Sequence record: NC_070990.1
Length of the DNA stretch: 64,000 bases
Strand: one strand, 5' to 3'
From: Escherichia phage MN03
Translations under genes and position numbers: made by a program
In this document: one piece after another, positions 4,510 through 10,383 of the stretch
How the letters are laid out: every line of letters begins with the position of its first letter
Position numbering within the stretch: position 1 is the first letter of the stretch
Notes under the pieces: model-generated
Told to the model about the DNA's origin: nothing
What the model saw: only the letters and a program-made list of their open reading frames with translations
The model's database searches: none

Positions 4510-4887
4510 CTATGGATTTACACATTGACCATTACCGGACTCAATTTCATTCATGGACTCATCAAAGAGCGTCAACGATGAGCGCATCAAGTGATCTATC
4601 GTGATTTGTTTACCGGTAGTTTCATTTACCAGCAGAATAGCTTTGTTATCTGATTGCACATGATCAAAATCATTTACATGCAAAATAATAACTTTAGGTG
4701 ACTGTTTACCAGTTTCATAGTTTTCTATCAAATAGGTGCACTGTAAACCGTCAACCGTAGCAGGGGAGAACATTGCAGCCTTAACACTACCCATAGACGA
4801 TAGGAGAACGCCCAGCAGGAGAACGACAAGGAAGAAGCCCACGAATACTTTTACTACAAATTTGATAATACCCATGATAATAATCAC
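4510..4887 (-). CDS. Hypothetical membrane-anchored or secreted protein (125 aa)
   Basis: ORF track; N-terminal hydrophobic stretch IIKFVVKVFVGFFLVVLLLGVLL. Confidence 0.4.
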   Translation of the reverse strand: MIIIMGIIKFVVKVFVGFFLVVLLLGVLLSSMGSVKAAMFSPATVDGLQCTYLIENYETGKQSPKVIILHVNDFDHVQSDNKAILLVNETTGKQITIDHLMRSSLTLFDESMNEIESGNGQCVNP

Positions 4888-5514: not shown

Positions 5515-6006
5515 TTACTTACTAGCCTTAATACAGTTGGCTAAACTAACGTGAACGGTATAAACAGCGTTATTAGCGTTATTATAAACAGTTGTAGCAA
5601 TCATCGACTCATTGATCGGGCCATAACTCACCAGATTGGTTACAGCTTTAACGTCTTCGTAACGTTGTACAGTGCCAAATGTAACCATATCCGAGTCACT
5701 ATCGGTGCGCTTGAGAACTAGATCATTGTTAGGCTGATTGTCTAGTGTCTTAGACTGAAAGAGAACGCCATCATTAGTTACGTTACTAAATTTCATCTTT
5801 AGCACAATGGTAGTGCCGTCACTATCCGCACCGTTGCAAATCATCCAACCTTTGTTGATGGAACTAACGAAAACACTAGCCGCATCAGTTGCAGGAGCAG
5901 GACTAGCAACAGCCTTGTCAGAAAGAGATGTGACCAGTGCACTAACACCAATCGCTGCAACCAGTGCATAACTTGCCAGATTAACTACCTGCATTGATTT
6001 AGCCAT
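5515..6006 (-). CDS. Secreted protein with predicted signal peptide (163 aa)
   Basis: N-terminus MAKSMQVVNLASYALVAAIGVSALVTSLSDKAVA then SPAP; Sec-signal-like. Confidence 0.5.
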   Translation of the reverse strand: MAKSMQVVNLASYALVAAIGVSALVTSLSDKAVASPAPATDAASVFVSSINKGWMICNGADSDGTTIVLKMKFSNVTNDGVLFQSKTLDNQPNNDLVLKRTDSDSDMVTFGTVQRYEDVKAVTNLVSYGPINESMIATTVYNNANNAVYTVHVSLANCIKASK

Positions 6007-6871
6007 TTGTGAATCCTCGTTGATATGTATTTGGTTTCATGTTTCACAAGATAGCACGTGTTTCTGATTCACACGTAGGGCCATTGCTCAGTTGACCACT
6101 TCACTGACTCGATAGTGTTCCAGCTTTCACCAGTCAATCGCAGAGTCCTTATCTTTAAACATTCTCCACTACTTAGACTGATCAGTCTTCATGGAGCTTA
6201 CTACTATCTAGCTACTTTGCATCACTGCTTCGCTTCGATGAATACAATTTACTACTACTTAATAAGGAAAGCAAGTGCTACGGGTAAACTATTTCTACTA
6301 TCTATATAGGACGGGGAACATACAACCGCAGAGCAGACCACGGGGAAACATAGCAAGATAGTGCGGTAGTAATATACCACTTAAATAATTGTATAACTCA
6401 AACATCAAAGACGTTCGCTACGCTCACAAAGGCACGCTGAAAAAGGAAAGTAATAAAAGAATAATAACATACATCAACCATTATCCACTTAATTAATACA
6501 TATATCATTATTGCACTCATAATAACAACTATTGAAACTATTTACACTCAAACTATGGGGAGCTGTGACCATCATTAATGGCATTATTAGTATGCTAATT
6601 AGTTGGCCTGTACAGTGCTGGCCTTTCTCTCACTCTCTAAAGGGGAACTAAATAAACGGGTAGCTAATGAATAGGATGGTATACACGGGGAAAGAATAAC
6701 GGGGAGTAGGCACGGGGAAAGGTGGAACGTTGAAAGGGAAGGTAAAGGCATTGCCAATAACCCTTTTTTAAATGAGGACTCCCCCTTTTTAGGAAACGCG
6801 CGGCGAGCGGCTAGCCCCATTCGGTCAAATCAGAATTTTAAACTCTTATATATAAGGTTGAAAGAGAACTT

Positions 6872-7036
6872 ATGTGGAAAATTAAGTTAATCATTAAGCA
6901 ATTCAAATGTGATCATGAGTACTATCGGATACGCAAAGCTTACGGGGATGAAAGAGTTCACACCCTTTATAAGTCCACTTGGAGATGTAGTAAATGTGGT
7001 AAGCTTAAACACAGCACATGGATGGACAGACCTTAA
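6872..7036 (+). CDS. Small putative zinc-ribbon protein (54 aa)
   Basis: ATG at 6872, stop at 7034-7036; MWKIKLIIKQFKCDHEYY...WRCSKCGKLKH; below ORF-track size cut-off. Confidence 0.3.
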   Translation: MWKIKLIIKQFKCDHEYYRIRKAYGDERVHTLYKSTWRCSKCGKLKHSTWMDRP

Positions 7037-7270
7037 CGTGACATGGCCTTAACATGAGGGTGCCTTAACATGAAGTAGTCATCAAAGATGACGTCCCCTT
7101 TATGTCTTAACTTTATCAGAGGGATGTATGACAGAAGATGAATACGGTAGCTTCTCTGAAGAAGACTACGAAAATGAATACAGGTATTCTCACGGGTGTT
7201 AATGTGAGGTGGCCTTTACGGGTATGTCTTATGATGTGCCCTTTATACTCTTATTCAGAGGAGAAGAATT

Positions 7271-8178: not shown

Positions 8179-8206
8179 GTTGTTGATAATGTAGAAGGAG
8201 TATAAA

Positions 8207-8680
8207 ATGTTTGGAGAAAACGGAGAACTCACGCCTGCACAGGTAGCTGAGATTACAGGAAGATTACCCGGAGTAACGGAAGAACTTGAAGGCCGTGGTA
8301 TGAACCCAAGCAATGGGAAGTTTCAAAAGGGAAATAAATTCGGACGACCCAGAGGTAGTAGAGGTAAACTGACACAATTAATGTTGGACCGTGTTGCTGC
8401 AAGTCATTTGTCTCCTGATGAAGTGTTAATTCAAATTTACGAAGATCCTAATATTCCACCTGATCTTAGATTCAAGGCTGCATCAAAAGTTGCAGATCTG
8501 GTATATCCTAAGGCGGCCTCTGTTGAAGTTAAGATTGAGGAAGAGAATGTAATCAACGAAGAATCATTGAATGCACAAATCAAGGACTTCTTGACTGGAG
8601 CACTTGGTATCGACGTTATGCCTCCAGAAGAAGACAACTCTGAGGACGCTGAAAAGGGGGAGGAAGCGGACGAGAGTTAA
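8207..8680 (+). CDS. Putative terminase small subunit (157 aa)
   Basis: Position immediately upstream of the large terminase; basic N-terminal half and acidic C-terminus; GAAGGAG SD; no diagnostic motif, call by synteny. Confidence 0.35.
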   Translation: MFGENGELTPAQVAEITGRLPGVTEELEGRGMNPSNGKFQKGNKFGRPRGSRGKLTQLMLDRVAASHLSPDEVLIQIYEDPNIPPDLRFKAASKVADLVYPKAASVEVKIEEENVINEESLNAQIKDFLTGALGIDVMPPEEDNSEDAEKGEEADES

Positions 8681-8841: not shown

Positions 8842-10383
8842 ATGTCATTAGATAAACAAATTTATGAAGCTCTAACTGGTAACAATCTTAGTGTAGACGA
8901 AAAGAAAGCACTATTGAATATGTTGAAAGAGCGTGACCAATGGAGGAAGTATAATAGGATTTTGTCTTTCAAGGCGTATGACTTCCAAAAGAAATTTTAT
9001 GCAGCAGGATTGAAGCATCGCTTTAGATTCTTGTGTGCAGCGAACCGTGTTGGTAAATCTTACAGTGAGGCATACGAGTTTGCTTGTCATGTCACAGGTC
9101 GCTACCCAACTTGGTGGACAGGATATAAATTTAAAAGACCTATCTTAGCATGGGCAGTTGGTATTACAGGGGATTCCACAAGGAAAGTATTGCAAAAGGA
9201 ATTGTTTGGTACACCTATCGGAAAGGATACAAATTTATTGGGGACAGGTGTCATTCCTCGTGATGCTATCGTCATTGACACGATAGAACGAGATGGTAAC
9301 AAACTTCAAATCGTACAAATCAAACATCAAAACGAAAGAGGAGAGTTTGACGGTTTAAGTACATTAGAATTCCGTTCAACCCAACAGGGTGAACACACAT
9401 TGATGGGTGCAACAGTTGACTACATTTGGTTAGACGAAGAAGATCCATACGAGTCTATGGCTATATTCGCACAGTGCGTCACACGTACACTCACAACTAA
9501 AGGTCTAGTTACAATTACAGCTACACCAGAGAACGGTTTAACTGAACTGGTAGATAAATTTATGAAAGGTGAAGGGGATGAGAACACAGGTTCTCTATAT
9601 TTCCAGAATGCTTCTTGGTGGGATGCTCATGCAGACCTAGGTGGACATATCACTGACCAAGATATAAAAGATATGACTGAAGGTATTCCAGCGTGGCAGT
9701 TAGAGATGCGTTCGAAAGGTATGCCATTGTTAGGAAGTGGTTTGATTTATGATGTATCGGATGACACAATTAAATGTGAACCATTCGAAATTCCTGATAC
9801 GTGGAAACGTGTCTGTGCAATTGATATTGGTATTGATCACCCAACTGCTGCTGTTTGGACAGCTTACGATGCAAACACGGATACTATCTATGTTTACGAC
9901 TCATATAAAGAAGGTGGCTTTACTCCAGTGTATCATGCTCCAGCTATTAATGGTCGTGGTCAGTGGATTCCTGTCATCCTACCGCACGATGCGGACAATA
10001 TTGAGAAAGGTAGTGGCTCATCTGTTGCTCAATTCTATAAGAATGCAGGAGTTAACGTACAGAGTGAGACCTTCTACAACAAAATTGGAATGGATGGTAA
10101 AAAGAACTTCTTTGTAGAACCGGGAATCACAGATATCCGAGAAAGAATGATGAGTGGACGCTTTAAAATCTTTAACACAGCCGCTAATGCTAAGCTATTC
10201 GAAGAGAAAGCTAGATATCACCGTAAGGTTGGTAAGATTATTAAAGAACATGATGACTTAATGGATGCAATGCGCTATTCAGCGTGCTCTGTTACACATC
10301 GTGGTCGCTCTAAGCATGACGTTAGCTACGGAAGTGCTTCTCTGTATGAGGCAAACGTAAGCAGATGGAATCAGAGTTACTAA
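8842..10383 (+). CDS. Terminase large subunit (513 aa)
   Basis: Walker A-like CAANRVGKS, Walker B-like IWLDEED, size and position before portal; GGAGG SD. Confidence 0.85.
   Translation: MSLDKQIYEALTGNNLSVDEKKALLNMLKERDQWRKYNRILSFKAYDFQKKFYAAGLKHRFRFLCAANRVGKSYSEAYEFACHVTGRYPTWWTGYKFKRPILAWAVGITGDSTRKVLQKELFGTPIGKDTNLLGTGVIPRDAIVIDTIERDGNKLQIVQIKHQNERGEFDGLSTLEFRSTQQGEHTLMGATVDYIWLDEEDPYESMAIFAQCVTRTLTTKGLVTITATPENGLTELVDKFMKGEGDENTGSLYFQNASWWDAHADLGGHITDQDIKDMTEGIPAWQLEMRSKGMPLLGSGLIYDVSDDTIKCEPFEIPDTWKRVCAIDIGIDHPTAAVWTAYDANTDTIYVYDSYKEGGFTPVYHAPAINGRGQWIPVILPHDADNIEKGSGSSVAQFYKNAGVNVQSETFYNKIGMDGKKNFFVEPGITDIRERMMSGRFKIFNTAANAKLFEEKARYHRKVGKIIKEHDDLMDAMRYSACSVTHRGRSKHDVSYGSASLYEANVSRWNQSY

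Follow-up and report, generated by a model that had tools for sequence, protein, structure and literature searches.

A one-stranded array of ACGGG boxes at the joined genome ends of Escherichia phage MN03, a possible terminase recognition site

Introduction

Escherichia phage MN03 (sequence record NC_070990.1) is a phiEco32-like podophage of E. coli (genus Kuravirus). A stretch of 64,000 nt of its sequence was analysed here (from here: the window, to which all positions refer); it represents the genome in circularly permuted form, with the direct terminal repeat (DTR) collapsed to one copy. Between a leftward gene (5515–6006) and a rightward gene (from here: gene 1) lies a non-coding region of 865 bp (6007–6871), with the packaging genes located further to the right. 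This arrangement had been described correctly in an initial annotation made from the sequence alone, which also listed five copies of the heptanucleotide ACGGGGA on both sides of an AT-rich segment and suggested that these iteron-like boxes belong to a replication origin or, alternatively, are operator sites controlling the two divergent transcription units. Here we investigated the identity of the region, the distribution and conservation of the boxes, and the possible functions of the array.

The linear genome of phage phiEco32 carries 193-bp DTRs that have been mapped by experiment (see the summaries in PMC9965538 and PMC4281155), and the terminal repeat itself is already known for the genus Kuravirus. 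Its length and its conserved right part have been described, including a 'conserved 130-170' stretch recorded for 30 DTRs in PMC9965538, which matches an invariant 20-mer reported below. The ACGGG(G) boxes, their fixed register to the genome end and a second box cluster upstream of the repeat are not mentioned in this literature on the repeat; an earlier mention in the primary phiEco32 reports (Savalia 2008, Pavlova 2012) is possible.

Results

The non-coding region joins the two genome ends

The boundaries of the DTR were set by aligning the window to both ends of phiEco32, which were mapped experimentally, and of YF01, which were annotated from nanopore reads. The DTR of the window shares 185 identical positions with each of these repeats and is homologous to them over its full length. 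In BLAST comparisons, the right ends of the phiEco32, SU10 and YF01 records all fall at query position 806, equivalent to window position 6812, and their left ends at 6620. The repeat of phage 4E8, annotated as 206 bp long, begins at the same terminus word. Because right-end DNA, DTR and left-end DNA align consecutively to the reference ends, the window is a circular permutation with a collapsed repeat, and the region 6007–6871 is, by homology, a concatemer junction, i.e. the joined physical ends of the genome. The initial annotation had rightly singled out the region as special, cis-acting non-coding DNA, but it overlooked that the genome ends meet there and that 6620–6812 is the DTR. It follows that the AT-rich core has non-equivalent flanks, with one box cluster in unique DNA of the right end and the other in the interior of the repeat.

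The repeat is the same element as in phiEco32, SU10 and YF01, with which it has the internal repeat CCCTTTTTTA (noted in PMC4281155) in common. A similar word, GCT/RGSC (with the slash marking the inferred cut), occurs at both of its boundaries, as GTGCT/RGCC on the left and GGCT/AGSC on the right, and the left terminus word RGCCTYTC is kept among the aligned DTRs. When the invariant 20-mer was used to scan IMG/VR, only four stretches from three contigs were retrieved. The termini of LUZ24 and PaP3 were too diverged for an alignment with those of the window.

At the right genome end, a non-coding stretch of about 300 bp (6007–6310) has no counterpart in phiEco32, SU10 and YF01 and is common to XT18, XT73, FS2B and others. 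Only the C-terminal half of the gp128 family (residues 129–290 of 290 aa) is matched by the adjoining leftward gene (5515–6006, minus strand). At the far right end of the genome, the module has been exchanged. For phage SU7, only 53 bp are repeated at the ends of the record, and the SU7 paper gives a 53-bp repeat with caution; homology from the terminus word to a GGCT/AGG boundary suggests a repeat of ~249 bp.

Several other types of element were considered for the region and rejected. Small open reading frames (ORFs) at 6115–6309 on the plus strand and at 6255–6380, 6398–6520 and 6599–6820 on the minus strand differ by frameshifting indels among relatives, which argues against hidden protein genes, and an ORF of 73 aa would be split by the genome end. 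A non-coding RNA is not indicated either, as the whole window yielded no Rfam match at gathering thresholds and no tRNAs. A hairpin or cruciform in the repeat was dismissed because both single strands of 6600–6830 fold worse than dinucleotide-shuffled controls (z = +2.3 and +1.9), with 199 and 198 of 200 shuffles, respectively, folding at least as well; self-complementarity is therefore depleted.

ACGGGGA boxes are clustered at the genome ends

The five ACGGGGA copies of the initial annotation were recovered at 6311, 6340, 6685, 6699 and 6712, all on the plus strand. A sixth copy, missing from its list, is located at 6942 on the same strand inside gene 1, and no further copy exists on either strand of the window. 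All six are contained within 632 bp. Whereas their total number is unremarkable (shuffle mean 2.85; six copies reached in 9 of 100 shuffles), their clustering is significant: chance would place about 0.06 copies in 865 bp, and at least five in any one stretch of that length have a Poisson probability of 6.7e-9 (~1e-6 after correction for ~148 such stretches). The probability that six random copies span no more than 631 bp is ~6e-10, with the shared strand not yet counted. Nor is the motif common in coding DNA. It is absent elsewhere in the window. Of the ten copies in the complete phiEco32 genome (77,554 bp), nine are terminal, with three in each repeat, two before the right repeat and one in gene 1; a single copy lies elsewhere.

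The boxes at 6685, 6699 and 6712 are situated inside the DTR, at repeat positions 66, 80 and 93, and those at 6311 and 6340 in the unique DNA of the right end, where they belong to an upstream cluster found ~280–340 bp further left than the left terminus (Table 1). The 10-nt word CACGGGGAAA occurs exactly at 6339, 6684 and 6711, the word GTAnnCACGGGGAAAG is repeated at 6679 and 6706, and degenerate copies of the form ACGGGTA were found at 6280 and 6656. An inverted box-like word in the 20-mer pairs with box 2 (inverted repeat I5). The sixth ACGGGGA is kept where the gene 1 protein reads YGDER and is lost in SU7 (RGDER).

Table 1. Features at the genome-end junction of phage MN03 and of the neighbouring terminase genes (positions in the window)
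Feature	Position	Strand	Remarks
Right-end unique DNA	6007–6619		left of the repeat
Upstream box cluster, in right-end unique DNA	6280–6348	+	ACGGGTA 6280, ACGGGGA 6311, CACGGGGAAA 6339
Two CCACTTAAWTAAT words	6377–6389, 6485–6497		flank the polypurine tract; repeat D12
AT-rich core	6400–6549	+	includes the conserved polypurine tract CTGAAAAAGGAAAGTAATAAAAGAATAATAA (6437–6467)
Inferred left terminus, GTGCT/GGCCTTTC	6615–6627	+	cut between 6619 and 6620, by homology
193-bp DTR, one collapsed copy	6620–6812		alignment to phiEco32 and YF01 ends
Box 0, AAATAAACGGGTA	6650–6662	+	most conserved box; ACGGG begins at DTR position 37
Box 1, CACGGGGAAA	6684–6693	+	includes ACGGGGA at 6685; TACAYGGG in 11 of 11 aligned DTRs
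Box 2, ACGGGGA (AACGGGGAGT)	6699–6705	+	CACGGGA in other lineages
Box 3, CACGGGGAAA	6711–6720	+	
Degenerate box 4, GAAAGGGAA	6741–6749	+	aligns with CACGGGGAA of the 4E8/EP335/KBNP1711 lineage
Invariant 20-mer, AATGAGGACTCCCCCTTTTT	6771–6790	+	inverted box-like GGGGGAGT on the opposite strand
Inferred right terminus, GGCT/AGCC	6809–6816		8-bp palindrome; cut between 6812 and 6813
Left-end unique DNA	from 6813		
Promoter-like block before gene 1, CGGTCAAATCAGAATTTTAAACTCTTATATATAAGG	6822–6857	+	conserved in five aligned sequences extending past the DTR
Gene 1, conserved 54-aa protein	6872–7036	+	C-x-H...C-x-x-C, zinc-ribbon-like; PHROG 7696, function unknown
Sixth ACGGGGA, in gene 1	6942–6948	+	codons Tyr-Gly-Asp; status as box uncertain
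Candidate small terminase subunit (TerS)	8207–8680	+	phiEco32 gp6 homologue; proposed reader of the boxes
Large terminase subunit (TerL)	8842–10383	+	Pfam Terminase_6N (3.7e-15), Terminase_6C (4.2e-14)

The array is conserved in register and on one strand

For the analysis of conservation, 11 DTRs of Kuravirus-like phages from three genera and of unclassified phages were aligned. Contigs encoding TerS homologues of 62–86% identity were retrieved in addition and show an unchanged layout; the termini of metagenomic sequences were placed by homology. The islands conserved in the 11 DTRs are RGCCTYTC, box 0 (AAATAAACGGG), box 1 (TACAYGGG), the G-runs of boxes 2 and 3, the 20-mer and a terminal CT. 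In box 0, the ACGGG core is invariant and the A-rich leader nearly so. The 20-mer is likewise invariant in this set, and its core GACTCCCCC is found also in relatives with a TerS that is 62–75% identical. Because the sequence between the islands has diverged, the exact ACGGGGA is confined to the phiEco32 lineage, with ACGGG as the conserved core. Across ~15 related phages, the core ACGGG or AYGGGT is kept on one strand, while the spacers have diverged.

Within the DTR, the ACGGG of box 0 has its first base at position 37 in nine lineages, at 38 in L025 and at 24 in GAP52. Counted from the inferred left cut, box 0 begins after 36 bp in nine lineages and after 37 bp in a tenth. This register holds down to 62% TerS identity, with the preceding 30 nt differing. 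Summed over 12 Kuravirus-like sequences, the pattern A[CT]GGG[GT] occurs near the termini 76 times on the plus and four times on the minus strand, counts that are not independent because the sequences are related. In a thirteenth sequence, GAP52, it was found zero times on the plus strand and once on the minus strand.

The upstream cluster is present also in phiEco32 and YF01 (two boxes) and in 4E8, EP335 and Bas89 (four boxes). The Suseptimavirus phages SU7 and ECBP2 have AYGGGTA in the repeat as well as in the upstream cluster, and both clusters of SU7 have changed in concert. The box word is AYGGGTA(GG) in SU7, ECBP2 and L023, ATGGGTAGG(GTA) in L023, L024 and L032, and ATAGGGT in L025; in distant genera it is ATTGAGG (GAP52), GTRTGGATA (7-11) or ACTATGGRA (Privateer). 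The more distant Grimontviridae have kept the polypurine tract and a TTCCCCCTTTT element and carry other repeated words in the same layout. Such lineage-specific words in a common layout would be expected of sites that are read by a co-evolving phage protein. The resemblance of the boxes to sites for a sequence-specific protein, which underlay the initial annotation, thus appears to hold, considering that they are clustered on one strand, form conserved islands in diverged relatives and are replaced by other words in distant genera. Judged from these comparisons, the ACGGGGA boxes are this lineage's form of an old, one-stranded array of ACGGG or AYGGGT words, which begins at a fixed distance from the left terminus and occupies the first half of the repeat.

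The AT-rich core contains a conserved polypurine tract

The AT-rich core seen in the initial annotation was confirmed by GC contents of 0.33 (6400–6499) and 0.23 (6450–6549), compared with ~0.42 for the window. Both L022 and L023 have its polypurine tract with the flanking words; a polypurine tract of the CTGAAAR type is found also in L024, L025, GAP52, 7-11 and Privateer. In GAP52 (L016), five perfect DnaA boxes (TTATCCACA, four on the plus and one on the minus strand, against ~0.04 expected) are located at 443–631, beside the polypurine tract and a putative terminal repeat. This arrangement hints at a role of DnaA at the genome end in GAP52.

Terminase genes and other neighbouring elements

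The candidate TerS gene directly precedes the TerL gene and is accompanied by the late-promoter word TAATGTAGA at 8187. When a profile built from 40 TerS homologues was compared with the PDB, the top two matches were small terminases, those of NV1 (7joq, E = 0.004) and PaP3 (6w7t, E = 0.078), in agreement with an HHpred statement in PMC9965538. A basic arm of TerS reads PSNGKF in ACGGGG lineages (the window, phiEco32, KBNP1711) and P(S/N/T/E)TG(K/R)F in GGGT lineages (SU7, ECBP2, L022–L025, L031, L032). Moreover, when the acidic C-terminal tail is disregarded, residues 29–47 account for seven of the ~13 substitutions between the window and SU7. The arm thus shows a weak apparent co-variation with the box word, which is only suggestive because the independent events are few.

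Another ORF (4510–4887, minus strand) belongs to PHROG 13168, which is labelled 'terminase' and includes gp125 of phiEco32. It was rejected as a candidate binder of the boxes: its product is membrane-anchored through a hydrophobic N-terminus and lacks DNA-binding features, so that the label looks wrong.

The core TATATAAGG of the promoter-like block before gene 1 is found also in L022–L025. The stretch was listed by the SU10 authors as a potential sigma-70 promoter, and it was not flagged in our sigma-70 consensus scan. A role of the boxes as gp36 promoters was rejected, since it is AAGACCTA or GGTAGTAGATA, and not ACGGG, that precedes the known late promoters of the window; TAATGAATA at 6665, the only near-match to a gp36 promoter in the region, lacks the critical G at –11. 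This word (6665–6673, inside the repeat) is one mismatch away from the gp36 promoter word, and its AATGTA core is kept at the same column in Bas92 and Bas94 (AAATGTATA) and in the IMG/VR contig L013 (TAATGTAAT). It may represent a rightward middle or late promoter inside the repeat in some lineages.

Further repeats were noticed near both genome ends. At the left end, a second repeat family (D1) consists of three copies of the 21-nt direct repeat TTAACRTGAnnnGGCCTTAAC, with the words GCCTTAAC, just after gene 1 (7033–7069) and again 150 bp on (7199–7219); in SU7, words of the GCCTTTATGGGT type occupy the same place. On the other side, a direct repeat of the TTACTACTATCTA type (family D4) occurs in three copies at 6198–6210, 6249–6261 and 6292–6304 in the lineage-specific left part of the region, and in Proteus phage Privateer the corresponding region holds five copies of TTACTAC words. 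The 17-nt word CTTTGCATCACTGCTTC is identical between window positions 6215–6231 and positions 68–84 of Salmonella phage 7-11 (L028), within ~35 nt of similarity. It is located in both cases in non-coding DNA upstream of leftward early genes, in two phages of different families, and since it lies just downstream of an annotated leftward promoter in 7-11, it may be a conserved 5' leader element.

Discussion

We tentatively interpret the boxes as a terminase recognition array at the concatemer junction, a function that we consider plausible without calling it probable. Grounds for this interpretation are the confinement of the boxes to the junction, their uniqueness, their fixed register with the cut, their polarity on one strand and the lineage-specific words. 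The array stands beside the inferred cut and, with no copy elsewhere in the window, is unique in the genome; the terminal position of nine of the ten phiEco32 copies likewise fits a packaging signal, which should be unique. What is directly supported comprises the repeat and its boundaries, identified through homology to mapped ends, as well as the clustering, terminal confinement, strand bias, conservation and fixed spacing of the boxes and the parallel with T7 discussed below. In the proposed mechanism, a phage DNA-binding protein, most likely the TerS encoded 1.4 kb downstream, would bind the array on replicated concatemers. Binding would mark the junction as the unique packaging site, and the bound protein would position the nuclease of the large subunit at the two GCT/RGSC words bounding the repeat. 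The upstream cluster would serve as an accessory site, comparable to pacB of T3 and T7.

A similar layout exists in T7, the sequence of which was checked for this purpose. Its 160-bp terminal repeat contains the heptamer CCTAAAG three times on one strand (at 17, 41 and 60), eight exact copies follow just inside the left end (175–332), mostly 13 bp apart, and two exact as well as degenerate copies precede the right repeat on the same strand. These heptamer arrays were reportedly named SRL and SRR by Dunn and Studier in 1983. The Kuravirus repeat is alike in having three to four same-strand boxes inside (spacings of 29, 14 and 13) and two to four before the right repeat, and in both phages early promoters point inward beyond the arrays. 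In contrast to T7, the Kuravirus arrays are shorter, and on the unique side of the left end only one copy is found, the one in gene 1 (6942). As the box word (ACGGGGA versus CCTAAAG), the terminase and the phage family are unrelated, the likeness is one of analogy and not of homology. In line with this, the summary of the TerL search does not name T7-group phages among its organism groups; the relatives given there are LUZ24-like and P22-like phages. Arrays of sites for the small terminase are also known from cosB and pac regions, such as the R sites of lambda and pacL/pacR of SPP1. There, too, short repeated elements that are unique in the genome stand by the terminase cut site and near the terminase genes, with binding being a proposal in the case presented here. 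Unlike these phages, which have cohesive ends or package by the headful, the Kuravirus type has blunt ends with a duplicated 193-bp repeat, and its boxes lie between two cuts instead of on one side of a single cut.

Several points weigh against recognition by the terminase. The termini of MN03 and of L022–L025 were placed from homology only. To our knowledge, the function of the T7 heptamer arrays has not been established, and therefore the analogy carries no mechanism. The assignment of TerS is weak, considering the two E-values, the absence of a Pfam match, and an AF2 model with a pLDDT of 68 for which a Foldseek search against the PDB gave nothing significant. Moreover, TerS is 91–100% identical across lineages with differing boxes, so that the co-variation with the box word rests on few residues and one or two evolutionary events, with no phylogenetic correction. 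For PaP3, a homologue with a solved structure, the only TerS–DNA contact reported is with a terminal 20-mer and not with repeated boxes. Finally, the second cluster, outside the repeat and beside the AT-rich tract, fits an origin at least as well.

As a replication origin, the region would have initiator sites in its two box clusters, which would flank an AT-rich unwinding element (6400–6549), and a bound phage initiator would melt this core. In a variant, transcription from a nearby promoter would prime replication, as at T7 origins. We judge an origin to be less likely than terminase recognition, but a serious rival with several observations on its side. The core has only 23% GC; its polypurine tract (CTGAAAAAG...) is conserved out to GAP52, 7-11 and Privateer, accompanied by flanking CCACTTAA words at least in L022 and L023; and the perfect DnaA boxes of GAP52, within ~190 bp, take the place of the upstream ACGGGG cluster of Kuraviruses. 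In the 4E8, SU7, L022 and L023 lineages, the gp36-promoter word TATAATGTA comes immediately after the upstream cluster and is directed into the AT-rich tract, an arrangement resembling the promoter-plus-AT-rich origins of T7, but this word is absent from the lineage of the window. The cumulative GC skew has its minimum at the region, which is uninformative because the skew switch coincides with the gene-strand switch. In iteron-type origins such as lambda ori and plasmid oriV, direct repeats stand beside an AT-rich segment, as they do here (GC 0.23 at 6450–6549). Unlike those iterons, however, the units in the window are much shorter, with boxes of 7–10 bp, a conserved core of 5–10 bp and irregular spacings of 29, 14, 13 and ~31 bp instead of a phased 17–22 bp, and one of the clusters is inside a terminal repeat. 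No adjacent initiator gene was found in Pfam and PHROG scans of 17 neighbouring ORFs, most of which are of unknown function. The window contains a single imperfect DnaA box (TTATCCACT at 6481) that is not conserved in 4E8, and host DnaA was rejected as the reader for this reason. The fixed 36-bp register of box 0 to the terminus would also be left unexplained. Of the two functions offered in the initial annotation, the origin thus retains the support of the conserved AT-rich polypurine tract, against which the short and irregular boxes have to be set, whereas operators are the weakest reading because the boxes are direct repeats and far from promoters.

Transcriptional control would require that an early phage protein or a host factor acts at the boxes, activating or shutting off outward early promoters of the leftward early unit and of genes 1–3. 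Both clusters do lie upstream of promoters pointing into the genome, with the promoter-like block before gene 1 on one side and, on the other, a possible TTGCTT-17-TAAATT promoter on the minus strand (~6245–6275), recognised by eye, relative to which the upstream boxes would be placed at roughly –40 to –110. The adjacent gene 1 encodes a zinc-ribbon-like protein that is a possible alternative reader of the boxes. Nevertheless, we consider such control improbable. The boxes are direct repeats on the plus strand without dyad symmetry, they are 105–190 bp away from the gene 1 promoter block, and the published early promoter of SU10 and phiEco32 is at least ~145 bp from the upstream cluster. The sigma-70 consensus scan gave two weak sites against 3.2 expected by chance, none of which overlaps a box. 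In addition, the known switch of phiEco32 consists of gp79 and gp36 acting on RNA polymerase and not on operators, and the fixed register with the terminus would again be unaccounted for.

We hold it still less probable that the boxes have no sequence-specific reader, their G-runs being a by-product of local duplication or slippage on a purine-rich strand, or serving a structural role in stiffness or in the avoidance of hairpins at the ends. The plus strand is indeed purine-rich throughout 6250–6760, the poor folding of the DTR single strands would fit, and slippage-type variation in the T-runs of the repeat was reported by the SU10 authors. Composition does not explain, however, the invariant words of boxes 0 and 1 within diverged flanks, nor the fixed position 37, the concerted change in SU7 and the repetition of other words in distant genera. 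A G-quadruplex appears unlikely, given non-canonical loops of 9–10 and 41 nt and the words of the distant genera, which are not G-runs.

Packaging and replication might also be combined. In such an ori-pac element, one phage protein, perhaps TerS, would be bound at both clusters, and the AT-rich polypurine core between them would be looped out and opened, so that local synthesis could begin beside the junction and copy the 193-bp repeat before the two cuts are made. We consider this a long shot. If true, it would provide a concrete mechanism for the duplication of the terminal repeat during packaging in T7-type phages, a step that is still described as not fully understood (PMC3350473).

Conclusions

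Kuraviruses are widely isolated as therapeutic phages of E. coli, and most deposited genomes are circularly permuted with a collapsed repeat. With RGCCTYTC, ACGGG at position 37, the invariant 20-mer and the GCT/RGSC cut word as landmarks, the true ends can be set from sequence alone; the reported 53-bp repeat of SU7, suggested above to be longer, is an example. The box array moreover is a defined candidate packaging signal in a group of phages in which neither pac nor ori has been studied. That T7 and an unrelated family of podophages alike carry short one-stranded repeats within and next to the terminal repeat suggests a general requirement of this packaging strategy.

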